Of a stretch of DNA of 64,000 nucleotides, positions 1 through 44,983 are shown piece after piece. Numbering within the stretch: position 1 is the first letter of the stretch; each line of letters begins with the position of its first letter. The stretch comes from a plasmid: the sequence record NZ_CP017041.1; one strand, 5' to 3'. The notes under the pieces were generated by a model. It was not told the DNA's origin. It made no database searches and saw only the letters and a list, made by a program, of their open reading frames with translations. The translations under genes and the position numbers were made by a program.

Positions 1-514
1 CCATTGGCGCTAATATCGCAGCGATAAAGAGCGCTACACTGACTCCTAATAGAAACTGCTCATAAATATTTCTATCAAGTATCATATTACCGAGAATAGG
101 ACCTACCGCCGCAGTGCAATTCGCGACAACTTGAATGACAGCGAAACCGCGGTTTTGGGAAGCTCTATCAGGAGTTGCTAGCGCTATAAAGCTTCGCACA
201 CCAGTACCATTAACACTGAACCCTAGGCCCGCAGCGCCCAGAGCAGCAATTATCGCATAGGGGTTTGCCGTAAGCGCCACAACAGCGTAAGAAACCGAGA
301 TCAGAGTAAGAGCAATTCTTACGCAACTTCGCACTGATAAACGGTGAAGTGGCGAAGCAAGAAATAGAGCACCACCACGAGTCATCAGTGTAAGCACGCT
401 TACCGACCCCGCGATGAGTCGTTCCTGCGTACTTCCAAATTTCAATGTAAGCAATAGAGGGAGGACCGGTAGCAACGCAAAGTAAGATGATTGGCTGAGA
501 ACTTGGTCTGCCAT
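1..514 (-). CDS. Membrane transporter (MFS-like), N-terminal part; gene continues beyond window start
   Basis: The minus-strand reading frame opens at an ATG near 514 (MADQVLSQSS...) and runs off position 1. It is hydrophobic and TM-rich with a G-x-x-x-R-G loop motif typical of MFS. It is absent from the ORF track because it is truncated by the window edge. Confidence 0.45.
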   Translation of the reverse strand, partial: MADQVLSQSSYFALLPVLPLLLTLKFGSTQERLIAGSVSVLTLMTRGGALFLASPLHRLSVRSCVRIALTLISVSYAVVALTANPYAIIAALGAAGLGFSVNGTGVRSFIALATPDRASQNRGFAVIQVVANCTAAVGPILGNMILDRNIYEQFLLGVSVALFIAAILAPM

Positions 515-1173
515 AATGAGGTTGAATACGCGCCCAGGAAGCCGAGACTTCGACGGTTTACTTCGTGTCCCTATTGTCTTCACTGGCACCCCTAAACTTC
601 AGTCCAATCAACAACTCTAACAGCTTTTTTAATCGCTTCATCACAAACTTTATCTTCCCGCACGAATCTTCGAGTTTAATGCTCATATTGGTATGACATA
701 TTCGATGCATAAAGATTTCTCTAGTGAATATTAGACATTATATCTATGCTCTTGGTTCATGCGAAGATTATCGGTCGTTCCAGACGTTGGCGAAGAGTGC
801 GAATAGTGGTGCTGTCTTCACTGGCTCCGATCATTCACATAGCTGATGGCCTGTCGGTCTATGACGCCAGAACACACCTCGACCGAGAGCTCAACCACGA
901 GCCGCTGTGGGAATAGTGAACACGGAACTCATATTAGCAGCGACCCAATCACGCATCTCAACATGTTTGTGAGTAGAGAAATTATTCATAATTAGGCGCA
1001 AATCCTTCCTAGAGTAAACAGAAAAATCCTTGATGGCAATATTGGACGTTGACAACTCCAGCCACGCGACTGACGACGATGTTTAAAGCTGCGAACAAGG
1101 TTATCGTAGCGTGCCGCATAATATAGTCATGGTGTGTGTTTCACTGCTCACCGTAAAATCTACTGCCACGCAA

Positions 1174-2481
1174 CTAATCTCTGCTTACAGGAGCGACACG
1201 CACTACGCAAGCATTAGCAGCGCGATCCAATAACTGAGTCACTGTATGCTCGTCATTACCACGGGCAACAATAGCAGCTACCCTTGCATGCGAACCATTT
1301 ACTGCATGTGCTACTTCTCCTGGGAAGCATTCCCAATACAAATCGATTTCTTCAGGGACACTGTCATAGAGCGAAACCTCTGATACCACTCCAGGCGAGG
1401 CTTCGATAAACTTTGAAGCAGCACACTGGGTTATCTCAGGCAAAGGATGGAGAGGAAGTCCACACAAAGAATCAATCAGATTTCCATAGTAGTCGATCCC
1501 TGGTCGCACAGCTGACACAAGATCCGGCGCAATAAAATCTCCACCTTGACGCACGTGAAATTCTCCCCATACAATTTTTTTCTCAGGTGTGACCCAAAAT
1601 TCAACATGCAGATTTCCACACTCAATTCCAAGCGCATTTACACAGCTTTGAAGCTGTTCTTCAAATTCAAGTTTGCTGGATATACTGTTCAGATCAGCTG
1701 GCTGGATATGACCAATTTCAACGAAATCTTCGTTGGTTGTTTTTGCTGTGGTTGTGTAGATGCATACCCGTCCATCTATAGCAATACCCTCAACTGAGTA
1801 CTCAATACCCGTGATAAACTCTTCTAAGCAGTAATTCCCCTCGAGAACGACAGCATCAAGTCCAGAAGTATCTTCAACATTTAAGATGTGTCTAACGCCA
1901 ACACTGCCCATTCCTATGGATGGCTTAACAATCCAGCCTCTTGGGCTATCGGTTGGTTTTTCAACGACAGCGCCTGATGCATCACTAAATTGTAGGCACC
2001 CATCAGAAGTCACTCCAACAATACGCAAGCTTTGTGGCTGATAGATACCAGCTTTTCGAAGCGCATCGCGGCACGCTGGTTTATCTTGGATACGTTCAAT
2101 ACAATCAGCAGTATTTCTAGCAACACCAATAGCTTCAGCTAAAAGACTATTCTGCAACTGATAATTTTCGCGCAGTGCCGTTGAAAGAGCTATCTTTCCA
2201 GGGCATCGGGTTTCAATTTCTGTCGCTATTTTAGCGATCTCATCAGCATCTAAGCTTCTCCTGTAGGGTCCGGATATTCTAATTAAACAATCGACAGAAA
2301 TCGGCGGAATTTTGTTCTTTAGTTCTTCCTCGAAATCTACGCCACATATCATTATGTGGCGCTTCTGGCACGCTTCATAGAAGCTTTTAAACCAATGCGT
2401 TGAGGCATGAGATCCAGATGTGGTGACACCTACCAAAACCGCCCATTTTCTTTCAGCCACTACGCTGTCACGAGAAAACAT
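1174..2481 (-). CDS. ATP-grasp family carboxylate-amine ligase
   Basis: 435 aa ORF. It has an ATP-grasp-like glycine-rich segment (GWIVKPSIGMGSVGV) and lies last in the NRPS operon. Confidence 0.75.
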   Translation of the reverse strand: MFSRDSVVAERKWAVLVGVTTSGSHASTHWFKSFYEACQKRHIMICGVDFEEELKNKIPPISVDCLIRISGPYRRSLDADEIAKIATEIETRCPGKIALSTALRENYQLQNSLLAEAIGVARNTADCIERIQDKPACRDALRKAGIYQPQSLRIVGVTSDGCLQFSDASGAVVEKPTDSPRGWIVKPSIGMGSVGVRHILNVEDTSGLDAVVLEGNYCLEEFITGIEYSVEGIAIDGRVCIYTTTAKTTNEDFVEIGHIQPADLNSISSKLEFEEQLQSCVNALGIECGNLHVEFWVTPEKKIVWGEFHVRQGGDFIAPDLVSAVRPGIDYYGNLIDSLCGLPLHPLPEITQCAASKFIEASPGVVSEVSLYDSVPEEIDLYWECFPGEVAHAVNGSHARVAAIVARGNDEHTVTQLLDRAANACVVRVAPVSRD

Positions 2482-3181
2482 TTAACCATTCCCTTCTTCC
2501 AAAACCTTCATGTGCATAATGCCCTCCGGTCACTTCGATCAATCTGTACGTCTCACTCGTAGCTTCACGCCATTGGACGGCCTCTTCGGAAGAAACAATC
2601 TTATCATCAATAGCGGAAACACAGGTTATAGGGACATGAATCTGCTTAAGTTGGTTACCACAACACGATTCCGCCAGTAAGAGATCATCGAGCGTAGGGC
2701 GAACAAACAGATCATCGGATTCATCGGAGTTCAGAATACTTTTAGGAGTCAATCCGTAGCTACGCATACGCTGCCGTGCACGTTCCAAGTTCCATCCCTC
2801 TCGCTCCCCCCTGTAACTCTTAGGACTTTGCCCACATAAGGCAACCAAACGAGTCGCGAAAATTCCGTCATTTTCTAAAATATTAGCAGCTACGAACGAC
2901 AACATCGCGCCAAAGCTAACCCCGGCGAGTATCAACGGCCCAGTCGGAATTTCGAAGGATGATCGAAACTTGCTGACGAACTCTCCCATGGTTCTGATGC
3001 CGGGTTCAAGTAATCGTTGACCCCTGCCAGGCGGGCAGTAACCCCAAACTGTAGTATCCCCCTCTAAGACAGACATCGATTGAAAGGCAGGAGCTCCGGC
3101 ACCCGTAGGAGGGAATATCAGGACTGTGGAGCAACAAGAGGTAGTTGCTGAACTAATACGCTGCCAAACTTCCGGATTCAA
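2468..3181 (-). CDS. Type II thioesterase (alpha/beta hydrolase)
   Basis: 237 aa ORF with the GxSxG nucleophile elbow (AGVSFGAMLSF). Its size and operon position are typical of editing TEII. Confidence 0.8.
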   Translation of the reverse strand: MNPEVWQRISSATTSCCSTVLIFPPTGAGAPAFQSMSVLEGDTTVWGYCPPGRGQRLLEPGIRTMGEFVSKFRSSFEIPTGPLILAGVSFGAMLSFVAANILENDGIFATRLVALCGQSPKSYRGEREGWNLERARQRMRSYGLTPKSILNSDESDDLFVRPTLDDLLLAESCCGNQLKQIHVPITCVSAIDDKIVSSEEAVQWREATSETYRLIEVTGGHYAHEGFGRREWLNVFS

Positions 3182-4917
3182 TGCTCACGCTCCTCAACAG
3201 GCATCAGCAAGCTGACCAAGCAGGAAATCGTTGGATTGGAATAGAAGTTCCGCAAGGGGACACGAACACCAAACTGTTTACCGATGGCGGTCAAAAGCTG
3301 AACAGCGCGCAACGAATTTCCACCTGCGGAGAAAAAATCACGATCTTCACCGTGGATCTTCTTTCCAAGGACCATATCCCAGATATTTTGCACTTGATCG
3401 TGAACACTGTTACGCTGCATTTGTCCTTGGGATATTCTGTCGTGATCGTAGAGTTCGCTCTGTGCTACCAATTTCAGGCACTCGCACCGATCTATTTTTC
3501 CCGTTCTTGATCTAGGAACATTCTGCGTAGTTACGATCTTGAGAGGAATCATATAGGAAGGTAGAAATTCGGCAAGACGAGAAGTCGTGACCTGAGACTC
3601 CCATTCGCGTGGAATCACGAGCGCCAAAAATCCACCACTGCCTTGGTGATAAACTGCACCACATTGTTTCGTGGAGTTAGCAACTCGAGCTGCAGCTCTT
3701 TCAACCTCTTCCAAGTGGATCTTGTGTCCAGCGATATTTACCGCATTATCGAGCCTGCCAACCAGTGAAAGGACACCATCCTTGATGATTCCCAGATCAC
3801 CAGTCCGTATTTCACGTTGTCCACTTCCAAGTGTAAAGAACGCATCGTCCCCTGGACTGAGTTGACCATTAACGATATATCCATCGGCCACTGGGGCACC
3901 CTGTACGCATATCTGTCCCTCTTCCCCAGATAACTTTTCGTTACCTTTCATGTCCCGAATTACAATTTTCGTAGCACAGATCGGCTCGCCAAGGGGGATA
4001 GGGTCCGGAATGCTACCTGACCGAGAAACCTCGAAACTTGTTGTGTTAGCCGACGTCTCAGTAGCTCCGTAAAGATTCACTACTCGCGCACGGGGCGCGA
4101 TCTCGAAGAATTGACGGACAACGCTTGCCATCAGCTGGTCTGCACTGCTGCACGCTAGACGGAGCTGAGGAAGAGTGCTCCCTTGCTCTGTGGCAATGTC
4201 ACACAAGCTGGCTAGTGCTGGAGGTGTCGTAAAAAGGTGGGTAGCACCACTAGACGCAAGTCGATCGAACATCACGTCAGGTCTGCTACGCTCGATATTA
4301 GTAATCAAAACACCAGTAACACCTGCCAGCAGAGTCCCCAACACTTCCCAAAATGAAGCAACAAATGAGAGTGGCTTCTGGACGACCACAAGATCGCTTG
4401 ACTCGTAAGGGTAGGCGTTCCACATCCACGTGATACGGTTCCGCACCGCATCCATTCCTACTTGGACGGCTTTCGGAACTCCTTCTGATCCAGATGTGAA
4501 ATATAAGAATTTTGATTTATCGCTCCAGGTCAAGGACCTGACATCACTTATCCAGTTCCCTGCAAAAATTGCTTCTTCCGCTGTTGAGTCGTCGATCAGA
4601 ACCGTTTTAGACCCAAGATTAATAATCATGTCCCGCTCTCGTGAAGCCGGAATATTCAACGGAATCCAAGCAATCTTGACAGGCAACGTCACAGCTGCTA
4701 TTACAAGGGCAACAGATTTGGCGGATAAATCGAGTCGAGCAGCAAAAGTAACGCCCTCACTTTGTTCTCGGTTGAACCACCTTCTCCACGCAAGGATATT
4801 TTTAACTAGCTGTTCCCATGAGCATTGCTCGCCGGCGGGACCGGTCAGACAGACATCACCTGGTTTCTGAATGACTATATTACGAAACCCCTCCAGCAAA
4901 TCATGTGACGGTTGCAT
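3178..4917 (-). CDS. NRPS adenylation-PCP didomain protein
   Basis: Core A-domain motifs are present: A3 (TSGSEGVPKAV), A5 (NLYGATETS), A7 (IRTGDLG), A8 (GRLDNAVNIAGHKIHLEEVE) and A10 (RTGKIDR). The PCP motif (FFSAGGNSL) follows at the C-terminus. Confidence 0.9.
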   Translation of the reverse strand: MQPSHDLLEGFRNIVIQKPGDVCLTGPAGEQCSWEQLVKNILAWRRWFNREQSEGVTFAARLDLSAKSVALVIAAVTLPVKIAWIPLNIPASRERDMIINLGSKTVLIDDSTAEEAIFAGNWISDVRSLTWSDKSKFLYFTSGSEGVPKAVQVGMDAVRNRITWMWNAYPYESSDLVVVQKPLSFVASFWEVLGTLLAGVTGVLITNIERSRPDVMFDRLASSGATHLFTTPPALASLCDIATEQGSTLPQLRLACSSADQLMASVVRQFFEIAPRARVVNLYGATETSANTTSFEVSRSGSIPDPIPLGEPICATKIVIRDMKGNEKLSGEEGQICVQGAPVADGYIVNGQLSPGDDAFFTLGSGQREIRTGDLGIIKDGVLSLVGRLDNAVNIAGHKIHLEEVERAAARVANSTKQCGAVYHQGSGGFLALVIPREWESQVTTSRLAEFLPSYMIPLKIVTTQNVPRSRTGKIDRCECLKLVAQSELYDHDRISQGQMQRNSVHDQVQNIWDMVLGKKIHGEDRDFFSAGGNSLRAVQLLTAIGKQFGVRVPLRNFYSNPTISCLVSLLMPVEEREH

Positions 4918-4939
4918 CTTTATCTCCCTTCATACTACA

Positions 4940-7900
4940 TCAATAGCTTTTGAGCATTGTTATCTGAGATGTATCACAATCATTAAGGGCAGTTTTTATG
5001 GCATTAGCGACAGTCGTCTTCCCCGAGAGCCAATCAGAGGTAAGGAACCACGCTGTAAGAGCCAGTACTTTATTAGCGCGTTCTGGTGTCACATACGCCA
5101 CTTTATAAGCAAGTTGCAAGGTATAATCTTCGCCGTGTCGCTGGATATAAAGAGACGCATCATATTTCGTAAACCCAGTATTCAATTCAGTTAAGTGAAG
5201 GCTTCGATCACCATCCCAAAACTCCAGAGACGGGTAAGTAAGCATATTCACCATCGTGCTAAACAATGGATCCTCGTTCGTGTGATCAGCGAACTCAGAA
5301 ACAACCTTGCTAAATACGCTGTCACCGAATGAGACAGCTTCAGTCACATTAGATATCATCGAACGTACTGTGTCACTAATTTTCTTTTCGACATCTATAC
5401 GAGTTCGTATTGCAATCATGTTAAGCATCAGAGTTGGGACGCCAATTTCATACTCATCGTTTCGCCCTGCTACTGGTGCACCGACAACAAAATCATGTTG
5501 GTCAGAGACCGCTGCCAACGCTAACGAATAAGCAGCCACGAATACTGCAAATGGGCTTGTACTCAATGCATGCGCAGTGGAACGGATCTCAGCAGTCGCT
5601 TCGTCATCTAGAGAGACCTCTATAACAGAAGCAGCGTAGGGATCACACGAACTATTTAATGTATCGCGCAATGGGAAACATGATTTCACTCCATCGAGTG
5701 ATTTTGACCAAAATTCTCGTGCTTCAGCGGATATCTCTTCAGGTTTCGACAGATGTTGGAAATATTCCAGAGCTGAAGTCATAGCTGTCTTGACTTCGAT
5801 CTCCTGATCGTCCATGTTACGACACTCAAAAAGAGAAATTAACTGTTCCATGAACTTCATTGCTCCCCAGCCATCGATAAGGATCTCGTTCATGGTCAAA
5901 ACGAACCAGGTAGAATATCCATTTATACGGATCTCGTCCACGGCGATAGCGGGACCTTCCTCCAGGTTAAAAGGGACTGCTGCTTTCATCCAACAGATCT
6001 CACGAGCCTCTTGCGCAGAGGCCACTTCGTGTATTGAGATTTCATCCATATCGATAGCAGAGATAGGAAACGTCTGTGTAAATCTCCCAGTTGAATCCAC
6101 TCCAAACTTCGCCATTAGCTGTGGATTCGCCCGTAATGCCTGGCCAAGAGCACGACGGATTCTATCGGTGTTCGACCCAGCGCATTCTAACAATATCTGA
6201 TAATTATAGTAAGGGCTTTCAGGCTCCAGTAGCCATTGAAAATAAATTCCTTGCTGAGCCGGATTCATATCACAAGTCAAAGGAATTTTGACGTCATCAA
6301 AGCGGGAAGGAGATCTTTTTGCAGAGGTCGATTTCTTCGGAGATATCTGTTGTGCTTGATATTCTTTTGCTAGAGAGCCTAACGTATATGAAGAAAGCAA
6401 ATCTCGTACTCTTACGTAAGATCCTCGTGAGCGGACAATATTGGCTAGCTGAATTGCTCGAAGAGAATCGCCTCCGGATTCGATGAATGTTAGTTCTGGA
6501 TTCACAGGAGTGCCAAGCACGTCCTGAACGAGAAGAATGAAAGAGTCCTGATTCTGTTCAACTCTACCGGGAATGGATCCCTCTCTTGACTCTTGAATTT
6601 CATTCAGTAACAGTTCCCCGGCACGGCGCTCTAATAACTTAATATCTACCTTGCCATTTGAAGTAGTGGGAATATCAGTAACCTCTATCCAACGGGATGG
6701 ACACATCACTCTAGGGAGACTGCTTTTCGCGCGATTATTAAGCATTTTGGGAGTAACTAAACAATCGGCGCGAGGAAGATAGAATGCGGCCAAGCTAGCG
6801 TCTCCTTGGCGAAGAAACTGGTGCGTCGTTTCTCGGAGCACCATTGCGCGACGTTCACGGACACGAGGGTGGAATTTAACCACTACAACGTCTTCAAGCT
6901 CTGGGATTTCTCGAAGGATACGGTTCTCGATTTCACCGGGCTCAATCCGTACTCCACTAATTTTTATCTGTCGATCAGCGCGGCCATCGTAAACCAGCTG
7001 ACCATCCGCTCGCTGGTGAACGAGATCTCCGGTGCGGTATATTCGGAATGGGTATCCATCAATCCTGGCAAATGCTTGAGCGGTTTTATCTGGGCTTCCG
7101 ATATAACCTAAACCCACACAAAGACCAGCAACAAAAAGCTCGCCTTGCGCTCCAGGAGAAACTGGACGCCAAGTACCTTCTGCGTACTCTAGGACGTATA
7201 AAGACGTATTAGGTATTGGAATTCCGATGGGAACTTCACCTGAGTTAAGCGATTCGCCATCCACGATCGCATGCGTTACATCATCAGAACATTCCGTAGG
7301 ACCATACGCATTAATCAACGGGACAAACGGAAATTTGTCTGCCCAGTCTCTAGCCAACCGAAGGGGTAATTCTTCACCAGTCACCAGAACATACTCAAGC
7401 CCAGAGAAAGACACGCTTGACCCAATTTCGTGAATAAGTTCACGAAATACTGTCGGAACTAGTTCAATGTGTGTTATATGTTTCTCTTCCAGTAAAGAAA
7501 AAAGCTCATGTGGATCCTGTGAAATACCGTTGGGGACGATACGTACTGCACCGCCTACCAGTAAAGCTGAACAAAATTGCCAAATGGATACATCAAAGGT
7601 GGTAGGTGCCGTCTGGGCCACAACTGAGTCAACACCAAGATGAAGGAGATGGGCTTTGCTATGCAAGTGATTCATCATGCCCATATGCGCGATTAGCGCA
7701 CCTTTCGGTTCACCTGTGCTACCCGAGGTGAAAAAGCAGTAGCTTGGAGCGTTGAAAGGATCATCCACACGCTCCAGAAATGTGACTCCTAATGGTGCCT
7801 TTGCTTCCGTTACGTGCGAGGTATTTTCAGTGAAAATGGCGACCGCGTTCGTGATTGTCTTAATATGTTTACGACGAGCCTCTGGCCACTGAGGATCAAT

Positions 7901-8236
7901 GGGTGTATAGATGGCACCTACGGCACTACAAGCTAGGATATCGACAAGACATTCGATACCGCGCGAGTGCTCTGAAATGACTACTCTTCCAAAGGCATGT
8001 TTCTTTTCCAAGAGATAGGCTCGATTGTTAACTCGATTCAATAACATTTCGTAGGTGATTTCTTCACCATGAATATCTATTACGGCAACGTGATGTGAAG
8101 TGATCTGGGCCCATTCAACTAAATACGAGTAGAGTGTGCGTTCTAAAGGCCAGTCGACGTTTTCCCCGACCAGTGCACTCCGGGTAGCGAGCAAGCTCAA
8201 CCCATTTTTTTCCAAACTTTTGGTAAGGTTTATCAC
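4940..8236 (-). CDS. NRPS A-PCP-C tridomain protein (C domain C-terminal, with degenerate HHxxxDG core)
   Basis: A domain motifs FTSGSTGEPKG, NAYGPTECS, YRTGDL, GRADRQIKISGVRIEPGEIE and NGKVD are followed by PCP (ESGGDSLRAIQL). A condensation domain follows, with a C1-like MNPAQQGIYFQ and a core reading MNEILIDGWG instead of HHxxxDG. Confidence 0.9.
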   Translation of the reverse strand: MINLTKSLEKNGLSLLATRSALVGENVDWPLERTLYSYLVEWAQITSHHVAVIDIHGEEITYEMLLNRVNNRAYLLEKKHAFGRVVISEHSRGIECLVDILACSAVGAIYTPIDPQWPEARRKHIKTITNAVAIFTENTSHVTEAKAPLGVTFLERVDDPFNAPSYCFFTSGSTGEPKGALIAHMGMMNHLHSKAHLLHLGVDSVVAQTAPTTFDVSIWQFCSALLVGGAVRIVPNGISQDPHELFSLLEEKHITHIELVPTVFRELIHEIGSSVSFSGLEYVLVTGEELPLRLARDWADKFPFVPLINAYGPTECSDDVTHAIVDGESLNSGEVPIGIPIPNTSLYVLEYAEGTWRPVSPGAQGELFVAGLCVGLGYIGSPDKTAQAFARIDGYPFRIYRTGDLVHQRADGQLVYDGRADRQIKISGVRIEPGEIENRILREIPELEDVVVVKFHPRVRERRAMVLRETTHQFLRQGDASLAAFYLPRADCLVTPKMLNNRAKSSLPRVMCPSRWIEVTDIPTTSNGKVDIKLLERRAGELLLNEIQESREGSIPGRVEQNQDSFILLVQDVLGTPVNPELTFIESGGDSLRAIQLANIVRSRGSYVRVRDLLSSYTLGSLAKEYQAQQISPKKSTSAKRSPSRFDDVKIPLTCDMNPAQQGIYFQWLLEPESPYYNYQILLECAGSNTDRIRRALGQALRANPQLMAKFGVDSTGRFTQTFPISAIDMDEISIHEVASAQEAREICWMKAAVPFNLEEGPAIAVDEIRINGYSTWFVLTMNEILIDGWGAMKFMEQLISLFECRNMDDQEIEVKTAMTSALEYFQHLSKPEEISAEAREFWSKSLDGVKSCFPLRDTLNSSCDPYAASVIEVSLDDEATAEIRSTAHALSTSPFAVFVAAYSLALAAVSDQHDFVVGAPVAGRNDEYEIGVPTLMLNMIAIRTRIDVEKKISDTVRSMISNVTEAVSFGDSVFSKVVSEFADHTNEDPLFSTMVNMLTYPSLEFWDGDRSLHLTELNTGFTKYDASLYIQRHGEDYTLQLAYKVAYVTPERANKVLALTAWFLTSDWLSGKTTVANAIKTALNDCDTSQITMLKSY

Positions 8237-8243
8237 TCTATAT

Positions 8244-9233
8244 TCACCGTTTCATGTCTCCGTGAAAGTCTGGAACACGTAATCCATCGCCGGATATTTG
8301 AACGTGCTCGTACAAGCTTTGAGCAACAGCAAGGTCCAAAATTCCTAAACCAAAAGGAGAGAATACGGTTGGATGATCAGGGTCAAGCTGCTTCTCAGAG
8401 CATATGAATTCCGCCAGTGTGCCTGTGATGAAATTTCGATTTCCGTTCAATTGTTCGAGGAGGTGGGGTGTAGTGTTTGCCTTCAGGCAATGTTCAACAT
8501 CATCAAACACGTTATTAGCCGTTCGAATGGTCTCAGGGTGTAAATCACGAAGCGAGATATTGAGAACGAGCTGGTTCGGTTGGAAACGTACACTCATCGG
8601 CACATAAGGAGTTCCGGCGCTGGTGGCTAATAGCACGAGATCACAGCCAAGAGCTTCTTCTAAACTGACTACCGAACACTCGGGGCCGTGGCGAGTGACT
8701 ATACGTGCGACTAATTCACTATTTAAATCGTGAATTTTCACTGGAACCGCTGTCGTGTATAGCGACTTAATAAAATGTAAAGTTGTCTGTGCGATAGGGC
8801 CACTGCCTACTACACCGATACTCGTAGGAGCACCGTGAAGAACTCGAACTGCAAGCGCAGCCGAGGCAGCTGTACGAGCCGCACTAATGCGGCTGGCCTC
8901 GATGAACGCATAAGCATAGCCGTTATCTGTGTTATTTAGCACGATGACTGCTGAAGCTCTTTGTAGCCCATGATCAACATTCTCAGGAAAGCTAGAAATC
9001 CATTTAATTCCCGACACACAGGTTTGATCATTGATATAAGATGGCAACGCTATGATACGATCTCGTGGAGCATCTGGAAACCGAAGAAAATAACTATCGG
9101 GACATACTGTATTTCCAGCGTGATGTGCTCGATAAACACGTTCAACAAGATCGATGAGAAACGACTCTCTGCCTTTTAAAAATGTTTCGACAAGCTTGGC
9201 GTCTATAATTAGCATTTCACCATATTTCGTCAT
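8244..9233 (-). CDS. sbnB: SbnB-like NAD-dependent dehydrogenase (ornithine cyclodeaminase/mu-crystallin family)
   Basis: 329 aa ORF with a Rossmann motif (GVVGSGPIAQ) in the OCD-family layout. It sits directly downstream of the SbnA-like gene, the canonical Dap-synthesis pair. Confidence 0.75.
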   Translation of the reverse strand: MTKYGEMLIIDAKLVETFLKGRESFLIDLVERVYRAHHAGNTVCPDSYFLRFPDAPRDRIIALPSYINDQTCVSGIKWISSFPENVDHGLQRASAVIVLNNTDNGYAYAFIEASRISAARTAASAALAVRVLHGAPTSIGVVGSGPIAQTTLHFIKSLYTTAVPVKIHDLNSELVARIVTRHGPECSVVSLEEALGCDLVLLATSAGTPYVPMSVRFQPNQLVLNISLRDLHPETIRTANNVFDDVEHCLKANTTPHLLEQLNGNRNFITGTLAEFICSEKQLDPDHPTVFSPFGLGILDLAVAQSLYEHVQISGDGLRVPDFHGDMKR

Positions 9234-10235
9234 TTAAATACCTTCCGTTTCTTTCACTTCGTGCGCAACAGGACGAATGGCATAATTAAATGCTGATTCC
9301 CCAAAGTTTTCCATAACCCAATCGTCGTTATATACTCCATCCAGATACCTTTCACCAAGATCCGGCGCAATAATGACAACGCGGCTTCCCTCGGGAATTT
9401 TATCTCGAAGAGCATCAAAAGCTGCTAGCACAGTGCCAGTCGATCCACCCGGTAAAAATCCTTCTACCTGCGCAATGCGTCGGCACTGTCTCACGGTATC
9501 GATTTCATCAATATAATACCGTTTTAGAGGAAATTTTTCGTCAAAGATTGGTGGCTTTACACTAGCGCCTAGACCAGGGATATATCGCCGCGAAGGAGCT
9601 CCTCCGAAAGTCACTGAACCAGTGCTATCAATAGCATAAACTTTGGTGCATGAACCACGCTTCATGACAGCCCTAGATACACCCATAAGCGTGCCAGTGG
9701 TACCAGCACCTACAAATAGGTAATCAGGATCTCCTAACTCTTCGACGATCGCTCTATATGTCTTTTTGGAATGAACCTCAGGATTGGCTACATTTTCGTA
9801 CTGGTTTGTCCATAAAGGCCCTCCTGGCATCTCTACTAATTCGCGAACTCTAGCAAGTCGCGTCCCAAGAAATCCGCCCGCTGCATCCAATGATTGAACA
9901 ACTTCCACTTCCGCGCCCAGTGCACGCATATGCGAAATCGACCTTGAATTTGCATTCAGATCTGTAACAATTGTTAATTTGTATCCTCGGCGCGCACATA
10001 CACCGGAAAGTGCTATGCCTAAACTCCCAGAAGAAGACTCTACGACCCAACCTCCTGGCTGAAGACCATGAAGCTTTTCTAAGCTATCGACGAGTGCAAT
10101 AGCCGTCTTGAGTTTTACGGAACCAGCAGTGTTTAAACCTTCTAATTTTGCGTAAACATCATGTTTAGGAAATGAATTTTTCAAGCGGACAAATTGAGAG
10201 TTTTCATCTAGTTCTTCAATAGATCCTGCAATCAT
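9234..10235 (-). CDS. sbnA: SbnA-like PLP-dependent synthase (cysteine synthase fold)
   Basis: 333 aa ORF with a PLP-lysine motif (KLEGLNTAGSVKLK) and glycine-rich loops (GAGTTGT, GGSTG). It is the first gene of the NRPS operon. Confidence 0.8.
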   Translation of the reverse strand: MIAGSIEELDENSQFVRLKNSFPKHDVYAKLEGLNTAGSVKLKTAIALVDSLEKLHGLQPGGWVVESSSGSLGIALSGVCARRGYKLTIVTDLNANSRSISHMRALGAEVEVVQSLDAAGGFLGTRLARVRELVEMPGGPLWTNQYENVANPEVHSKKTYRAIVEELGDPDYLFVGAGTTGTLMGVSRAVMKRGSCTKVYAIDSTGSVTFGGAPSRRYIPGLGASVKPPIFDEKFPLKRYYIDEIDTVRQCRRIAQVEGFLPGGSTGTVLAAFDALRDKIPEGSRVVIIAPDLGERYLDGVYNDDWVMENFGESAFNYAIRPVAHEVKETEGI

Positions 10236-10425
10236 TTATTTGCTCCTACTGCGCATGACATGACATCGGAAGTTTTCATAACATACAAGCAAATTATAAT
10301 GAGGAGTCTTGTACAGGCTATGGGCGTTATTAGAAGAGGTTTAGGCAAGAAGTTAAGGATCTTGATCATGTTGATCCTGCCTACGAATGGCGTTGATAGA
10401 ATGACAGAGACAACAACACATATGC
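10236..10425. promoter_or_regulatory. Divergent promoter region between NRPS operon (minus) and PPTase gene (plus)
   Basis: A 190-bp AT-rich intergenic region lies between two divergently oriented genes. No promoter motifs were computed. Confidence 0.3.
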
Positions 10426-11250
10426 GTGACCTCCCTAGTGATACACGCTGAAGTAACTTGTCACCTACTTCATGAGCTAGTCTATCTCCTTATAGGACCA
10501 CATAAAAGAGAGGACCAAAAATTGATCTACATTTCTCGTGTGTCACTCGATACATTCCCCAAGAGTGCCTTGCCACAGCTGATGGAAAGAGCTAGTCCTG
10601 AACGACGAGATAGAGCACGAAGATACGTGCGAATCGATGACTGCTTGCGCTGCCTCATAGCTGACGAACTCCGGGCCTATTCATTGAAGCTTGATTACAA
10701 GGTGCCAGTACAGTCAGAGGTATCGAAGAACGCTTTCGGGAAGCCGCTACTAGCAAACCGCGATGGTCCTAAGTTCAACTTGTCGCACGATGGGAAGTGG
10801 ATTGTCTGTGCCACAAGCCCACATCCTGTAGGCGTAGACGTCGAGGCAGTCGCTGAGCCAGGTTTAGCGGTGGTCTCGAACGATTTTTCAGTGGAAGAAG
10901 TGGAGGCCTTGCGGACGACCGCTACGGCTCCCCTCTCCATCGCTCGAGCGATGATCTGGACACGGAAGGAGGCATACCTCAAATATCTGGGGTTGGGTCT
11001 CACTGTTCAGTTAGATTCTTTTTCAGTAATAGATCAAACCTTGCTGTCGCCAGCTGAAGGGATGACAGACGGTATTCAGTTTTATAGTTGGTGCGATGCC
11101 GATAACTCGCATGTGATCTCTGTCTGTGGCCACGGCGAGGAAGTCGTCATCTCTTGCGTCAGCGGGCAAGAATTACTAGATGGACTGCCACCATCTCACT
11201 GTTCAGAAGAACCTCAAGAGCAACTTCGTTGGTTGCCCAATCTTAGTTAA
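10426..11250 (+). CDS. Sfp-type 4'-phosphopantetheinyl transferase
   Basis: It has the FNLSHDGKWIVCATSPHPVGVDVE and WTRKEAYLKYLGLGL (W/FxxKEA) motifs. The true start may be internal, because Sfp enzymes are about 230 aa. Confidence 0.7.
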   Translation: MTSLVIHAEVTCHLLHELVYLLIGPHKREDQKLIYISRVSLDTFPKSALPQLMERASPERRDRARRYVRIDDCLRCLIADELRAYSLKLDYKVPVQSEVSKNAFGKPLLANRDGPKFNLSHDGKWIVCATSPHPVGVDVEAVAEPGLAVVSNDFSVEEVEALRTTATAPLSIARAMIWTRKEAYLKYLGLGLTVQLDSFSVIDQTLLSPAEGMTDGIQFYSWCDADNSHVISVCGHGEEVVISCVSGQELLDGLPPSHCSEEPQEQLRWLPNLS

Positions 11251-11349
11251 GATCATTTTGTAATTATCAAAATTCCAAGTCGCCTCGAGAAAAGCATTAA
11301 CAGAGATCATATCTCACCAGGAGAGATGCGGCTTAAATAACCTTCTCTT

Positions 11350-12054
11350 TCAATCCTTCATGACAGCTAGGCTCTTCACCTCGTCACGATCAAGTACTGG
11401 ATCACTCATGATAGATTTTTCGTGCTCAGCAATGCATCGTGGGCACTTTTTGAAAAAAACTGATCCGAAACGAGTTATACCTGCTGGTAGTGGCCCGTAA
11501 TTAGTAGCTATCTTGGCTATAGCTCCCCATGAAGGAAGAACCCATTCCACAGACTGTCCTTGAGCAGGTACATCCGCTGAACGTCGATAATCAAATCCAC
11601 CCAAGAGCTCCGCAAGATCCCAATAAGCATAAAATAGATCCGAGGCCAAATCGCTCTTCGAATGGACTTCTTGTCGCAAGTCACCATCGTGTAAAATAGC
11701 GATAGTGGATCCCCGATCCTCCCCATGCACCAATGGTGGCATGGAAGAAAATTTCCGAGTATTATAGACATGTACCCAACCAGATACGGATTGCTCTGGA
11801 GCCATCGGGACAACATGTGCTGGTATGGAATCGAATCCTAAATAAAAAGCTGCTCGACACCTGTGGGCTCCATCAAGGATGATGTAAGGTGCCCCTTGGG
11901 CTACGTGGATGCTTTCTCGTAATGCTTCATGTTCTAGCAATTTTGTAAGACGCTTGAGACGCAAAGTCTCACATTCCTCATGCCATACGAGTTGGTTTAG
12001 CGGAAGATACGATGATAACTCACAGCTACTACTAATTTTCATCAATTTCATCAA
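11350..12054 (-). CDS. ParB/sulfiredoxin-fold (ParB-like nuclease domain) protein
   Basis: 234 aa ORF. It carries the motif YIILDGAHRCRAA, which matches the DGxHR ParB/Srx signature. It is the last low-GC gene before the compositional junction. Confidence 0.45.
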   Translation of the reverse strand: MMKLMKISSSCELSSYLPLNQLVWHEECETLRLKRLTKLLEHEALRESIHVAQGAPYIILDGAHRCRAAFYLGFDSIPAHVVPMAPEQSVSGWVHVYNTRKFSSMPPLVHGEDRGSTIAILHDGDLRQEVHSKSDLASDLFYAYWDLAELLGGFDYRRSADVPAQGQSVEWVLPSWGAIAKIATNYGPLPAGITRFGSVFFKKCPRCIAEHEKSIMSDPVLDRDEVKSLAVMKD

Positions 12055-12956
12055 CTCTCAATGCACTATTAATGGCAACCTGGTCTTGAGATATCCGATC
12101 TATGACTCGGACCACTTTTTCATTGAGTAAGACAGTTTCTAGTATGTTTACTACGAATAAGGGAAAACTTTCTTCAATTTTACCTTAGGGAAAGATATCT
12201 CATAGTTCCGCATCACGACTATTGAAATTTGTAGATCGACCGACTTCTATAACCGATAAATTATGGGCGACTACAGCGATGTCTGTCGAGGCACCAACGA
12301 TGATTCTCGACAGCCCTGGACCCGCACTATCTCTTTTTGGGATGGAACGCATCGCATTGGCAATGCCTAACAGATCATGCTCTTCCGATCCTTGTCCATA
12401 CTTAACTGATGACCGCAGAAGCACAGATGCGGTAGGCATGGGCGGTGTCCGGATCATCCCCCCTTGGGAGCTAAGAGACCGTCGTTGATCACTACATCGA
12501 ACAAGGCCTGCAGGATAGGTTTACAAAACCGATCCGCCGCTACCACCAGTTCTGACACAAGCTTACGTACCATTGTTGATGCCATATCGCTCCTTCGCAG
12601 AAGCGTTCCGGGGGCTCGCAGACGGCATTGGCACCTTGGCACCGATGTCCGTGAATCCACAACGGAACCTGAAACTGCCCCACACGGTCTGATGCTCCGA
12701 CTTTCGTCAGCTTCCCCAGATCATCCGGGGCATCAATCCATTACCAGATTGACACTTAGCACTGTACCCTCACCAAGACCACACCAGCATCGAGGACGGT
12801 GGGAGAGAGGCGAACCCGCCACCACACGATGCACAAATACAAAAATACATAGGCATCATGATGCTCTTGGGCATCTCGCATACCCCCGTACGGTGCCCAA
12901 ACTCAATCCCTACGCAAAGCTCGCAGGCCTAAGTCTGCCCATCAAAATCATGGCTT

Positions 12957-13754
12957 TCACCAAACATCGATTTCTACACCGACTAGCCGACCCCTATCGG
13001 CGACATTGCCATACTGCTGACCCGCCTGGTCCTCTAGCCACGACAACGCATCCCGGAACATCCGCACGTCTTCCAAAGCGAAACCGCAGTCGTAGCCGCC
13101 CTTATCCCCCAACCGCACCATCTGGCGCTCCCGACGGCCACCTTCATCGACTTCGATCCATAGTTTCGCGTGCATCCGCTGGCCTCGGCCTTCTGACAGG
13201 ATCTCGGTGAGCAGATCGGAGGCTTGTCCTCGCGCATCCTCGTTGTCGCGAGGGAATTGGAGTGTGTGGGAAGAACGGTGGTGGGGCAGGTTTGTGACCT
13301 CGTGACGCAGCAGGTTGCGCTTGCGCATCTGCCGTTCGAGGCGCTCGGGCTGACTCGTTGACGGGGTTGTGCCGTGGCGGCGTTTCCTCGGCAGGGTTTC
13401 AATGTGTTTCTCGCCCAGCACCTCCTCGTCGGACTGTTGTGGTGCGCGGCTTCGTCTCGGGTGCAGGAGTTCGGCATCCGGTTCGGTGGGACGGTGAGAT
13501 GGTTTTCCGCGCTTACCGCGTACCTTCGCGGTCCGGCCTTTGCGATCATGCCGACGCCGCGGCGGGGTAACCTCCTCGCCCCGCTCCAACTGTGTTAACG
13601 CCTCGACCAGGTTGGTGCCAGGCTTAAGCCCTTTTAGCACGAACCGCACCAGGCGGGGGTCTCGGCCGATTCGTCGGGCAATCTCGGCTTGGCTCCACCC
13701 TTCGGCTAACAGGGTGCGCACCAGGTCCTGAGCCCGATTGTCACGCTCAGTCAC
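12957..13754 (-). CDS. HTH DNA-binding protein
   Basis: 265 aa ORF with an N-terminal helix-turn-helix (LLAEGWSQAEIARRIG) and a basic linker. It is translationally coupled to the upstream 568-aa gene by an 8-nt overlap. Confidence 0.45.
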   Translation of the reverse strand: MTERDNRAQDLVRTLLAEGWSQAEIARRIGRDPRLVRFVLKGLKPGTNLVEALTQLERGEEVTPPRRRHDRKGRTAKVRGKRGKPSHRPTEPDAELLHPRRSRAPQQSDEEVLGEKHIETLPRKRRHGTTPSTSQPERLERQMRKRNLLRHEVTNLPHHRSSHTLQFPRDNEDARGQASDLLTEILSEGRGQRMHAKLWIEVDEGGRRERQMVRLGDKGGYDCGFALEDVRMFRDALSWLEDQAGQQYGNVADRGRLVGVEIDVW

Positions 13755-15453
13755 TGGTCGCCTCCTCGGGGAGTCCTACTTGCTCGGCCTGCTCTGATAG
13801 AGCAGCCCGCTCCGATCCGGTCTGAGGCGCTTCCAAAGGGCCCGGCAAGACACCTTTGACACGCAGCCGCCCGTCCTTGCCGTCATCGCCGCCCCCCTGG
13901 GCCACAGGGAGCGCCCAGGGGGGCACGTTGCTGGTGTAGATAGCGTCGCCGTGGATAGCCAGCAGGGTGCGGGAGTTCATGCGTAGTGCTCCTCCCTTGG
14001 TTGTGGCGTTTTTTCCGGTGGTGGGGTCGGCGATGGGTGTGTTGAGGGTGCGTACGCGGGACAGGGCCCAGATGCGGGCGGCGATTTCGGGGTGCCAGGT
14101 GTCGGGGTCGGGGCGGCGGCGGGCGGTTTGGTATTGGTAGGCGATGGTGTCACCGGTTTTGTTGCGGATGACGTCGAAGCCTTCGATGTCGGAGGGGATG
14201 TCGTCGGCGTCGTAGACGACGGTGGTGGTGACGGGGTTGGAGGCCGACATTTGGCCGATGGTCACGCGCAGCATGTTTTTCAACGCGGAGGTGAGGATTG
14301 TCGTGGCGGTGGGGTTTTTGTCTGCCCAGCGTTTCTCGGCGATGTCGATCATGTCTTGGATGGTTTTGACCCATCCTCGGATGGGATCGACTTTGGTCAG
14401 TTTGATCCCTTCGAGGAACTCGATGGGCTGGGTGATGGGCCCATTTGGTCCGGCTTCGGTGTCCCAGCCTTCGTCGATGGCTAGTTTCAGTTCGGCGGTA
14501 TCGACCCATGTTTCGTGGGTGGTGCCGGGCACGTTGGGCCAAAACCATCCTGCTCGTCCTTTGGTGCGTTTGACCGGTAGTAGGCCGATGTCGTCCCACC
14601 AGGATGGCACGGTGAAGCGGATGTGGTAGCGGGCCGGGTGCCAGGGGTTGTTGGTGAACAGGTCGCGGGCTTCGGTGGCGCTGAGCAGAGTGGCGGGTGC
14701 GGCACCGATCTCTCCGGTCACTGATCCGGCATACATGAATCGGCCGTCGATGTACACGAAGTTAGGGATAGGGCCGGCAGGCACGGTGGGGCGCCAGCCC
14801 TTTTCGCGGTCCTCGGGGTTGCCGTCGTCGACGCATAGTTCGTAGCGGTGCTGAGGGGAGGTGTGTTGGATGAGTGCGCCCAGTTCGGGGTCCATCGGCT
14901 CCATGCGATAGGACTCGGGGGTCCGTAGCTTCCAGAGGTTGATTCCTTCTGCTCCGGGGCGGTCCATGAGGGCCCAGTCGCGGTCGATTCTGGTGGCGAT
15001 GATGTGGGTTAATTCGCGCCATGCCCAGCGGGCCTGGATTGGGGTGAGGGTCTGGCCAGGGAACCATTCATCAGCGACCAGAATGTCGAGGTTGCGGTCG
15101 GTTTCTTTGTGGGTGAACCGGCCTCGGGCGGGCCGCCCGGACAGCATGAACAGGCCCCGCACGTGCCAGTCCTGGTTGAACTCGCGGGTGTGAGCGGGGG
15201 TGTCAGGCAGCAGCCAGGATTGAGGCTGGTCGGGGATGTTACCGCAGACGATCAGGCGTCGGGCGTTGTGGTGTAGCGCGGTTGTTAGCAGGTCTGACAG
15301 GGTTGCGTGCTTGGTGCGTCGTCCCCCCAGCACTGGCAGGATCTCGTTTCCGGCCGCGTCGACTCCCCGGGCGGTGTCGATGTCTAGCCACACTGTTTCG
15401 GGGTCGGGGGGCCGATGTGGGGCGGGACGGCGCTGCTCCTGGTCGTCTCTCAT
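13747..15453 (-). CDS. Large replication-associated protein; possible primase-polymerase (AEP-like) N-terminus
   Basis: 568 aa ORF. The N-terminus has an hhhDhD-like motif (VWLDIDTARG) followed by LGGRRTKH, reminiscent of Prim-Pol motifs I and II. There is no Walker A. The assignment is weak. Confidence 0.4.
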   Translation of the reverse strand: MRDDQEQRRPAPHRPPDPETVWLDIDTARGVDAAGNEILPVLGGRRTKHATLSDLLTTALHHNARRLIVCGNIPDQPQSWLLPDTPAHTREFNQDWHVRGLFMLSGRPARGRFTHKETDRNLDILVADEWFPGQTLTPIQARWAWRELTHIIATRIDRDWALMDRPGAEGINLWKLRTPESYRMEPMDPELGALIQHTSPQHRYELCVDDGNPEDREKGWRPTVPAGPIPNFVYIDGRFMYAGSVTGEIGAAPATLLSATEARDLFTNNPWHPARYHIRFTVPSWWDDIGLLPVKRTKGRAGWFWPNVPGTTHETWVDTAELKLAIDEGWDTEAGPNGPITQPIEFLEGIKLTKVDPIRGWVKTIQDMIDIAEKRWADKNPTATTILTSALKNMLRVTIGQMSASNPVTTTVVYDADDIPSDIEGFDVIRNKTGDTIAYQYQTARRRPDPDTWHPEIAARIWALSRVRTLNTPIADPTTGKNATTKGGALRMNSRTLLAIHGDAIYTSNVPPWALPVAQGGGDDGKDGRLRVKGVLPGPLEAPQTGSERAALSEQAEQVGLPEEATSD

Positions 15454-15971: not shown

Positions 15972-16040
15972 GTCACCCTCCCCTATCTGTCAAATGAGCT
16001 AGACACAGTGTCTATTTAATTTGACGCAAAGTCAAGTGTG

Positions 16041-17002: not shown

Positions 17003-17096
17003 AGATGAAGGTGCCACAGCCGGGGTTGATGTGCGGAACCACAGCCACTTTTTCAATAAATCCATCACCAATCCATCACCACGGTCTCACCCCTTC

Positions 17097-17128: not shown

Positions 17129-17131
17129 GGC

Positions 17132-17500: not shown

Positions 17501-17516
17501 ACGGAGGTACAACGAC

Positions 17517-44982: not shown

Positions 44983-44983
44983 G

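Follow-up and report, generated by a model that had tools for sequence, protein, structure and literature searches.

Two described systems share parts with the gene cluster analysed here. In Staphylococcus aureus, the L-2,3-diaminopropionate (L-Dap) module of staphyloferrin B biosynthesis includes SbnA and SbnB, with SbnI adjacent, and the remainder of the pathway uses NIS synthetases. The dapdiamide (dda) cluster of Pantoea agglomerans combines an SbnA/SbnB-like Dap pair with an adenylation-thiolation (A-T) protein, a thioesterase, an ATP-grasp ligase and an MFS exporter. The present locus lies in a stretch of 64,000 nucleotides from plasmid record NZ_CP017041.1, referred to below as the window. 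Like S. aureus, it encodes SbnA and SbnB, both above their equivalog cut-offs; an SbnI-like gene is adjacent here too, but its similarity is remote, and the rest of the pathway consists of NRPS and ATP-grasp genes, unlike staphyloferrin B. By parts list, the cluster also resembles dda, from which it differs by a condensation domain and an additional adenylation domain; no epoxidase, amidotransferase or fumarate-ligase genes were seen in it.

The genomic setting has been described as well. In C. acnes KPA171202, the region PPA1278-PPA1304, with NRPS genes PPA1284-1292 and a ParA gene, PPA1280, was described as 'acquired via plasmid insertion' (Brzuszkiewicz 2011, PMC3124536), and the TAD contig of 'P. 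humerusii' P08 was found to match that region with its 5' end, which is lower in G+C (Brüggemann 2012, Fig. 4, PMC3316620). The compositional break is thereby already known, having been in the literature since 2011-2012 (PMC3124536, PMC3316620), and the additions made here are modest: the exact borders, the absence of an integration scar, evidence for an old junction, the affinity of the cluster to high-GC clusters including one on a Raineyella sp. contig, and a probable SbnI/SbnA/SbnB module. The GC step is a real, already published border at which a foreign peptide-biosynthesis cluster meets linear conjugative plasmid backbone, which supports the first-pass annotation in its view of a compositionally foreign NRPS block joined to a high-GC actinobacterial conjugative element. 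As a whole, the locus is best explained as old foreign cargo on a Cutibacterium plasmid that later also reached the C. acnes chromosome, a reading to which we give a probability of roughly 0.85.

Composition step, spacer and plasmid backbone

The GC content is 46.4% for window positions 1-12200 and 62.6% for 13001-64000. In 1-kb windows (SD 1.3 points on the left and 3.4 points on the right), the two sides do not overlap, as the left maximum is 0.490 and the right minimum 0.544. Change-point analysis of GC and tetranucleotide composition placed the single best change point at 12979 and 12986, respectively, bearing out the abrupt discontinuity noted at first reading. A three-segment fit set breaks at 12265 and 12980, with averages of 46%, 53.7% and 63% GC and a step of 16 GC points within 0.7 kb. 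The transition zone, predicted to span 400-800 bp, thus measures 715 bp (12265-12980), and the high-GC plateau begins near 12.98 kb rather than at 12.5 kb. Similarly, GC3 is 0.33-0.49 in genes left of the junction and 0.68-0.79 in genes to its right. The right side is high in GC as described, but not within the narrow range of 63-68%, since GC in its 1-kb windows ranges between 54 and 69% and drops at the IS607 element (25-27 kb) as well as in the intervals 35-38 kb and 51-54 kb.

The AT-rich trough on the cluster side of the spacer is likely the promoter region of the SbnI-like gene. A promoter-like TCGACA-18-CATAAT (10/12 matches) is located at 12289-12260(-), but such sites are no commoner than in shuffled sequence, and the same applies to terminator-like sites. 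The spacer itself is missing from C. acnes pIMPLE-type plasmids, is matched among PLSDB plasmids by AP024748.1 only, and is kept with indels in a diverged variant of the element. It holds no ordinary-sized gene, in agreement with the first reading that no convincing gene was present, and contains only a conserved 43-aa ORF (12454-12585(-)), the frame of which is open in 12/12 copies examined. Compared with the diverged variant, this ORF displays 7 synonymous and 6 non-synonymous codon changes, and residues 7-31 show synonymous changes only. Other candidates were discarded, namely an 85-aa ORF (12200-12457(-)), which has no family hits and a frame that is not kept in the diverged variant, and a 248-aa ORF (12464-13210(+)), likewise without family hits. 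An Rfam search of 11-14 kb returned no match up to E 1. The two variants can be aligned over the whole spacer, with no step in divergence along it. BLAST splits the alignment to the diverged variant at 12430/12431 (91% identity on the left, 83% on the right) because of a 97-bp indel; a recombination breakpoint at this position was rejected, as identity in 250-bp bins tracks coding versus intergenic sequence without a step.

On sequence grounds, the window belongs to a linear conjugative Tad plasmid of skin Cutibacterium, of the C. modestum ('P. humerusii') type. The linear topology is taken from the AP024748 deposit, for which Nanopore and Illumina reads were combined in Unicycler into a linear plasmid (PMC8620323), and the window contains neither plasmid end. 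C. modestum pKB17-24694 (AP024748.1) and the 'P. humerusii' P08 TAD contig represent the same element, junction included (1-51569, 99.4-99.5%). Window positions 1-37221 align to AP024748.1 as one block with 99.46% identity and 36920-51569 with 99.4%, while 51868-54087 are more diverged (86.6%); the segment at 51.5-60.5 kb is 95-97% identical to the right arm of C. acnes plasmids. Compared with AP024748.1, the window derives from another strain, reaches about 10 kb further into the right arm and has three copies of a 296-bp repeat instead of two. Plasmid-like contigs of P. humerusii have been reported at 3-5-fold higher read coverage (Kasimatis 2013, PMC3666418). Exact occurrences of the ATP-grasp protein fall in 434 index blocks, all on contigs of at most 200 kb, and the longest contigs bearing it, 62-82 kb, stop 5-9 kb past the gene.

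Five Cutibacterium plasmids cover 74-79% of window 12500-37000 at 88-99.6% identity. Rightwards from 12957, pIMPLE-HL096PA1 (NC_021086.1) and p15.1.R1 (CP012356.1) have the same backbone order with 82-93% identity, and the HTH stop codon, at 12957, is the precise point where C. acnes plasmid homology starts; from there, DNA identity to both plasmids is 91.9-92.8%. They also share the left-arm parA and toxin-antitoxin genes as well as the Tad and conjugation genes, yet lack the NRPS cluster. Homology stops at 12957 and picks up again at the parA gene, and the slot between parA and the HTH gene measures 2.3 kb in these plasmids, with a CopG-family gene and small ORFs, versus 16.2 kb here. The genes found on the right side include FtsK/SpoIIIE, a VirB4-like AAA_10 ATPase, TcpC, NlpC/P60 and Tad components (T2SSE, T2SSF, SAF), in line with the FtsK-type conjugation and Tad functions previously read from an actinobacterial-type right side; a SARP, also listed there, was absent from the ORFs scanned. 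The WhiB call holds in part: a cysteine-pattern search found a WhiB-like four-cysteine motif in ORF 24857-25219(-), but the WhiB turn motif G[VIL]WGG was not found and the ORF has no NCBIfam hit. An IS607 family element is located at 25.4-27.5 kb, at a different position in assembly ALWM01, and an ISL3 transposase at 61.9-63.0 kb.

The peptide-biosynthesis cluster and its relatives

Domain hits agree with the reading of the left-hand genes as an NRPS cluster (Table 1). The cluster core is self-contained, spans about 13.4 kb at 46% GC and has gene functions assigned from domain content.

Table 1 Features of the low-GC cluster, the spacer and the first backbone genes, in window coordinates
Feature	Position	Strand	Basis or remark
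MFS exporter gene, 5' part (196 codons)	1..589	-	extends past the left end of the window
ATP-grasp ligase (L-amino-acid-ligase type), 45% GC	1174..2481	-	PF13535 E 7e-13; weak LAL_C2
Stand-alone thioesterase	2468..3181	-	PF00975 E 2e-10
NRPS protein, A-T	3178..4917	-	AMP-binding, PP-binding
NRPS protein, A-T-C	4940..8236	-	AMP-binding, PP-binding, Condensation domains
SbnB-family dehydrogenase, L-2,3-diaminopropionate step 2	8244..9233	-	TIGR03944, 403 bits (cut-off 327)
SbnA-family PLP enzyme, L-2,3-diaminopropionate step 1	9234..10235	-	TIGR03945, 390 bits (cut-off 350)
Sfp-type 4'-phosphopantetheinyl transferase (PPTase)	10426..11250	+	PF01648, PF22624
Distant SbnI homologue (ParB/Srx-like regulator and serine kinase family)	11350..12054	-	GC 46%, GC3 0.37
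AT-rich trough (36-40% GC, lowest of the area)	12055..12265		GC scan 12000-12300; upstream of SbnI-like gene
Intermediate-GC spacer (53.7%)	12265..12980		three-segment fit
Conserved 43-aa ORF	12454..12585	-	GAAGGAG ribosome-binding site; no Pfam hit
265-aa HTH protein, first backbone gene	12957..13754	-	weak HTH_38/HTH_23 hits
568-aa backbone protein	13747..15453	-	no family hit

The SbnI-like, SbnA and SbnB genes probably constitute a diaminopropionate module, as suggested by homology. The SbnA-family protein matches S. aureus SbnA structures (E 4e-62). The SbnI-like gene is the final low-GC gene ahead of the junction, and its 234-aa product scores E 3e-6 and 26.8 bits against NCBIfam NF033589, far under the cut-off of 350; its alignment to SbnI in PDB 5uje covers residues 16-197 (180 residues) at E 5e-5 and brings the DGxHR motif into register. 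Together, these three proteins would supply L-2,3-diaminopropionate, the A-T-C and A-T proteins and the thioesterase would build and release a short peptide, and the ATP-grasp ligase would attach one further residue to it. The PPTase would prime the carrier domains, and the MFS pump would export the product. Two adenylation domains and one condensation domain are presumably too few for the 'surfactin-like cyclic lipopeptide' annotated in 2011. Decay of the NRPS genes was considered, as the A-T-C gene is truncated (442 aa) in some gene calls, and rejected, as no internal stop was present in the copies examined. At its other end, the low-GC block finishes with the MFS gene, beyond which DUF929 and ParA genes are located. 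The window 2-589(-) frame is identical to residues 1-196 of a 408-aa ORF of AP024748.1, which matches PF07690 MFS_1 with E 1.7e-12.

Seven core genes are syntenic, with 50-72% amino-acid identity, with clusters on Raineyella sp. contig JAYFNG010000010.1 (L029) and on two human-metagenome contigs (L024 and L037), and for the ATP-grasp ligase the identity to the syntenic gene is 52-58%. These clusters share the order SbnA, SbnB, A-T-C, A-T, thioesterase, ATP-grasp, then MFS. They differ in being 61-66% GC versus 46% here, in possessing a second ATP-grasp (LAL) gene, of which no relic was found in window 590-1173, in having a PPTase without detectable similarity to the one here, and in lacking an SbnI-like gene; their surroundings are chromosomal or IS-flanked. 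Outside the cluster of 99% identical sequences, the nearest relatives of the A-T protein are metagenome proteins with 56-58% identity, followed by proteins of Paenarthrobacter, Raineyella and Microbacterium with 47-51%, and no protein at 58%-99% identity was found among 5.8 billion proteins. S. aureus SbnA is clearly more distant than the high-GC relatives. Using tblastn, the A-T-C and ATP-grasp proteins matched nothing above about 33% among 72,556 plasmids except AP024748.1. An SbnA scan of genome contigs found a 6.8-kb scaffold binned as Lawsonella, two distant actinomycetes and nothing else; the scaffold represents the diverged Cutibacterium-type variant, HTH end included.

The closest sampled relatives are therefore in high-GC DNA, and the gamma-proteobacterial/Firmicute affinity and inter-phylum origin initially proposed for the cluster are unsupported. 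The taxonomy of these relatives rests on one Raineyella sp. contig, three proteins at 47-51%, and the GC and gene context of metagenome contigs. All other members found of this cluster family are in high-GC DNA; the one described here, with 46% GC, is the sole low-GC exception and remains at ~46% GC in both diverged Cutibacterium lineages. Its immediate donor would be low in GC and absent from the sampled genomes. It could be speculated that the donor was a low-GC organism, possibly a low-GC skin actinobacterium, that amelioration has been very slow or AT-richness selected for, and that the product is a new diaminopropionate peptide, although we regard this combination as doubtful. If true, the AT-rich block may be kept for control by, for example, a xenogeneic silencer, and a new diaminopropionate-containing peptide would move among skin Cutibacterium species via a conjugative plasmid.

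Age of the junction and route of the join

About 20 independent loci, from isolates and metagenomes, show the junction in colinear arrangement. It is present in three NCBI drafts at 99.3-99.5%, and C. acnes contigs of 0.70-0.88 Mb are colinear with window 1350-19664 at 98.5-99.3%; these contigs carry a protein assigned by name to C. acnes that is seen on contigs up to 2.56 Mb. In addition, six skin-metagenome contigs and one MAG scaffold contain a diverged variant with the same junction and spacer, with 89-92% identity in the cluster and 83-84% on the HTH side. As the junction is common to independent assemblies and to a lineage with a divergence of 9% within the cluster and about 17% within the HTH gene, a measure of sequence distance rather than of time, it is neither a chimera nor the very recent event suggested by the first-pass annotation. 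The join would predate the split of the element into two Cutibacterium lineages, now 9-17% apart.

The GC step at 12.27-12.98 kb would be the inner edge of a cargo segment in the left arm of the plasmid, placed between the par and toxin-antitoxin genes near the plasmid end and the HTH gene (12957-13754). An att site or tRNA had been raised as a possibility at the junction and was not borne out. The 64-kb window contains no tRNA or tmRNA, no integrase or recombinase is encoded among the ORFs flanking either border, and the sole serine recombinase is part of the IS607 element, 13 kb away. Flanking repeats between the borders are at most 19 nt and at chance level, the best being 11 nt exact and within the shuffled range. 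No IS, IS fragment or terminal inverted repeat was found at either border in the window, AP024748.1 or the diverged variant. A 16-nt inverted pair (window 12401-12416, AP024748 54606-54621) was rejected as transposon ends, having only 11 exact bases; it scores 22 versus 15.9 ± 2.6 for shuffles, with a maximum of 32. As no recombination scar is recognisable, which is weak evidence, the most likely route is replacement of accessory-arm cargo through ordinary or illegitimate recombination rather than site-specific integration.

Alternatively, the cluster may have been captured as a composite transposon or IS-flanked cassette, with the flanking IS copies later lost. This would be consistent with the homologous cluster in Raineyella sp., which is flanked by rve-type and DDE_Tnp_1 transposases, and with the mobile IS of the plasmid (the IS607 family element and the ISL3 transposase). 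Yet such capture appears unlikely in view of the borders, clean of IS remains in all three sequences, and of the make-up of the cargo: from parA to the HTH gene it consists of three or more compositional segments, a mosaic that points to several events.

Following cargo replacement on the plasmid, a piece comprising the cluster, the junction and about 8 kb of backbone would later have entered the C. acnes chromosome as island 2 (the 'NRPS island', KPA171202 PPA1278-PPA1304), here mapped via sequence identity to C. acnes contigs, with locus tags from papers. Island 2 is chromosomal, on contigs of 0.7 to 2.5 Mb, and has the same cluster, junction and backbone stretch at 98.5-99.3%, and its plasmid homology stops near window 21 kb. 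As expected from island 2, the aberrant-GC NRPS cluster of the window adjoins plasmid-type genes, with parA beyond the MFS gene. The high identity of chromosomal and plasmid copies over window 1350-19664 indicates a recent transfer in either direction and would also allow the junction to have arisen in the C. acnes chromosome, the plasmid later acquiring the cluster and its neighbours. We consider this order of events very unlikely, however. The genes right of the junction keep the plasmid order common to cluster-free pIMPLE-type plasmids, plasmid homology of the chromosomal copies ends at about 21 kb, and the chromosomal island has a plasmid parA gene (PMC3124536). Furthermore, the 568-aa backbone gene is frameshifted in 7/8 chromosomal-type copies and intact in plasmid copies, which argues for transfer from plasmid to chromosome. 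A compositionally foreign biosynthetic cluster hence moves with the C. acnes chromosome as well as with a conjugative plasmid, and this mobility is relevant to strain-level differences in the skin microbiome.

Had an island from another phylum been integrated very recently and site-specifically, at an att core or tRNA within 12.1-12.95 kb, this would account for the strong contrast in composition and in GC3 without any sign of amelioration, but such an event is highly improbable: no tRNA, tmRNA or Rfam match marks such a target, the borders lack an integrase, a recombinase and any repeat beyond the shuffled range, the junction and spacer are common to the diverged lineage, and for every core gene the nearest relatives are located in high-GC DNA, the Raineyella sp. 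contig among it. Finally, an assembly artefact joining a low-GC organism to an actinobacterium at about 12.5 kb has the size of the step as its only support and is already refuted for the element as such, leaving it a negligible chance, as the junction recurs base for base, strain SNPs and small indels aside, in the hybrid long- and short-read AP024748.1 and in isolate, chromosomal and skin-metagenome assemblies, the last of these from several projects, is also found in the variant diverged on either side, and was published in 2012 for strain P08. Continuity in the window rests on these other assemblies, which are 99% identical, and the result clears the assembly of suspicion, the window being a plasmid of a common skin commensal.

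Composition and gene content across the step

The composition changes abruptly just short of 13 kb, as the first-pass annotation had claimed and as both a sliding-window profile and a likelihood change-point scan confirm. In 1-kb windows, GC content is 44.7-49.0% at 1-12000, 49.2% at 12001-13000 and 54.4-69.4% at 13001-64000, with a mean of 46.4% on the left vs 62.6% on the right and no overlap between the windows of the two sides. At 200-bp resolution, a trough of 36-40% at 12000-12300 is followed by a shoulder of 47-58% at 12200-13100 and by at least 61% from 13000, so that the high-GC plateau begins ~0.5 kb further right than had been annotated. The single best break is 12979 for GC and 12986 for four-letter composition, and a three-segment model isolates an intermediate stretch of 53.7% GC bounded by breaks at 12265 and 12980. 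At third codon positions, GC is 0.33-0.49 in the eight left-hand genes, as opposed to 0.68-0.79 in right-hand genes.

Features of the window on both sides of the junction
Feature	Position	Strand	Remark
MFS exporter gene	1-589	-	runs off window start
ATP-grasp ligase	1174-2481	-	
Thioesterase	2468-3181	-	
Adenylation-thiolation (A-T) NRPS protein	3178-4917	-	
Adenylation-thiolation-condensation (A-T-C) NRPS protein	4940-8236	-	
SbnB	8244-9233	-	above NCBIfam equivalog cut-off
SbnA	9234-10235	-	above NCBIfam equivalog cut-off
PPTase	10426-11250	+	
234-aa SbnI-like protein	11350-12054	-	last low-GC gene before junction
43-aa ORF	12454-12585	-	GAAGGAG ribosome-binding site; in intermediate-GC spacer
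265-aa HTH protein	12957-13754	-	first backbone gene
568-aa backbone protein	13747-15453	-	no assigned function
120-aa ORF	24857-25219	-	directly upstream of FtsK/SpoIIIE gene
IS607-family element	25397-27459		L002 2079-4141; 206-aa serine recombinase and 481-aa OrfB/TnpB-type protein
Perfect tandem array	36641-37517		3.0 copies of 296-bp unit, 100% identity; directly upstream of ParA-like gene
ParA-like gene	37532-38527		
GmrSD_C-domain gene	55539-56363	+	type IV restriction endonuclease, E 2e-20
ISL3-family transposase	61904-62968	-	

The left-hand genes, all on the minus strand except that for the PPTase, belong to an NRPS cluster on whose product no paper was found in the literature. SbnI produces O-phospho-L-serine for SbnA, as the name of PDB entry 6nr6 also indicates. 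The 234-aa protein has no Pfam match. It aligns to S. aureus SbnI (NCBIfam E 3e-6; PDB 5uje E 5e-5), the structure match spanning residues 16-197 and bringing the DGxHR motif into register, and its gene is therefore probably a functional part of the cluster. Further right, the backbone encodes a GNAT acetyltransferase, a HicA-type toxin with an adjoining partner, FtsK/SpoIIIE, NlpC/P60, TcpC, a VirB4-like AAA_10 ATPase and a Tad locus with SAF, T2SSE and T2SSF domains. The FtsK and Tad genes named in the first-pass annotation are present; as for WhiB, the 120-aa ORF has a WhiB-like C-X20-C-X2-C-X5-C cysteine pattern but neither the GVWGG turn nor an NCBIfam match, and no SARP was found among the ORFs scanned.

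The junction in plasmids, chromosomes and a diverged lineage

In a PLSDB megablast, the window proves to be Cutibacterium plasmid DNA. Positions 1-37221 match C. modestum pKB17-24694 (AP024748.1, 59,050 bp, linear) in one block at 99.46%, followed by 36920-51569 at 99.4% and the more diverged 51868-54087 at 86.6%. Past the end of this "nearly complete" record, window 51.5-60.5 kb has its counterpart in the right arm of C. acnes plasmids (95-97% identity). Three NCBI drafts, reached via the exact SbnI-like protein, follow the window colinearly through the junction at 99.3-99.5% identity, and show strain-specific differences such as a 71-bp indel and another location of the IS607 element in ALWM01. 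A variant of this protein with a different start site occurs in 69 index blocks; the contigs are mostly 0.2-1 Mb long, and one exceeds 1 Mb. Seven fetched loci on 0.70-0.88 Mb contigs share colinear sequence with window 1350-19664 (98.5-99.3% identity), and members of its protein cluster are named C. acnes and lie on contigs of up to 2.56 Mb. A chimeric assembly is rejected, since the junction is colinear in these independent drafts and C. acnes contigs.

The C. acnes chromosomal copies include cluster and junction plus ~8 kb of the plasmid backbone, with homology ending near 21 kb. The 568-aa backbone gene is frameshifted in seven of eight chromosomal-type loci and intact in plasmid copies, which suggests that it matters for plasmid life only. 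These features agree with the entry of a plasmid fragment into the chromosome. The exact ATP-grasp protein is found in 434 index blocks, none on contigs of >200 kb, and its longest contigs (62-82 kb) stop 5-9 kb past the gene, which is what a plasmid end would give.

A diverged Cutibacterium-type variant of the element was recovered from six skin-metagenome contigs and a 6.8-kb scaffold binned as Lawsonella, and some of its protein-cluster members carry the name C. acnes subsp. elongatum. Its order (HTH gene, spacer, SbnI-like gene, then cluster) is that of the window, with 89-92% identity in the cluster vs 83-84% on the HTH side. The entire 0.9-kb spacer is alignable save indels of 10-97 bp, and identity in 250-bp bins tracks coding vs non-coding sequence with no step at the junction. 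Sequence comparison therefore places the join before the split of the two lineages, and the "very recent" insertion proposed earlier is not borne out. The scaffold (NZ_QFOZ01000015.1, from a Lawsonella clevelandensis MAG) matches window 6428-13160 at 83-89% identity and reaches into the plasmid HTH gene, of which it has the 3' end; mis-binning of a Cutibacterium contig is the most likely explanation. The 43-aa ORF in the spacer is open in 12/12 copies examined and has no family match; its residues 7-31 differ from the diverged variant by synonymous substitutions only.

Origin of the cluster and its place in the plasmid

Searching 5.8 billion proteins with the A-T protein returned a 99% cluster and then nothing down to 56-58%, with named matches in Paenarthrobacter, Raineyella and Microbacterium at 47-51%. 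The loci of the 56-58% matches and the Raineyella locus share the gene order of the window, with seven genes 50-72% identical; the DNA of these relatives (human-metagenome contigs L024 and L037, and Raineyella sp. contig JAYFNG010000010.1) has 61-66% GC and flanks of 65-76%. S. aureus SbnA aligns to the window SbnA with 213 bits over ~296 residues; the L024 homologue, at 72% identity, is clearly closer. Given these syntenic high-GC relatives and the more distant S. aureus SbnA, the cluster family occurs in high-GC DNA of actinobacterial type, and the suggested gamma-proteobacterial/Firmicute ancestry is not upheld. The immediate low-GC donor would be an unsampled lineage, and an "inter-phylum" origin is unsupported. 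In the relatives, a second ATP-grasp gene, of LAL type, sits between the first one and the MFS gene, whereas the window has only a 585-bp gap (590-1173) with no detectable relic of it. In its high-GC hosts, the cluster family likewise lies 5-15 GC points under its flanks, and the Raineyella sp. cluster has one transposase on each side; overall, the family looks horizontally mobile.

Homology to two C. acnes plasmids, pIMPLE-HL096PA1 and p15.1.R1, starts exactly at 12957, the HTH stop codon, and continues rightwards at 92-93% identity; left of it they are unrelated to the window. On the far side, outside the window, homology picks up again at parA of AP024748.1. The slot from parA to the HTH gene is 16.2 kb long here but 2.3 kb in the two C. 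acnes plasmids, where it contains a CopG-family gene and small ORFs. The low-GC block of AP024748.1 spans ~41.0 to 54.6 kb with the MFS gene last, and is separated from parA by a 60%-GC stretch and a DUF929 gene at 47-54% GC, so the cargo is a mosaic. The tRNA or att core suggested at the junction was looked for: the 64-kb window has no tRNA or tmRNA, 11-14 kb gave no Rfam match, neither border of the low-GC block carries an integrase or transposase, and repeats between the two borders do not exceed chance, so nothing points to a site-specific event. The cluster is thus cargo in the accessory left arm of the plasmid, and the absence of such marks suggests that it was probably acquired by recombination that has left no trace.

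Region PPA1278-PPA1304 of C. acnes KPA171202 was described by Brzuszkiewicz et al. 2011 (PMC3124536), and Brüggemann et al. 2012 (PMC3316620), whose Fig. 4 gives a G+C plot along the "P. humerusii" P08 contig with the TAD locus, state that the 5' end of this contig "has a lower G+C content" and is a match to PPA1278-PPA1304. Kasimatis et al. 2013 (PMC3666418) reported plasmid-like contigs in P. humerusii at 3-5-fold higher coverage and genes common to pIMPLE and KPA171202. As the low-GC NRPS end was published in 2011-2012, the finding was already known. The GC step is a real feature, correctly seen and ordinary in kind, being plasmid cargo; recent inter-phylum insertion and chimera are both rejected in the form proposed.

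Repeats, mobile elements and the right arm

Each 296-bp unit of the tandem array contains 24-bp sub-repeats (ATCTAGCTATTATATAGCAAATG), and AP024748.1 apparently has one copy fewer. It may be of iteron or centromere-like type, or else reflect collapse or expansion of a repeat in one of the assemblies. The GmrSD_C-domain gene lies in the right arm, in a region absent from the AP024748.1 record. The Cutibacterium plasmid matches end near 60.5 kb, and the last 3.5 kb of the window (60.5-64 kb, 67-69% GC) lies beyond them. Finally, the ALWM01 copy of the IS607 element, 95% identical, sits near window 17.9 kb, and the element has therefore moved recently.
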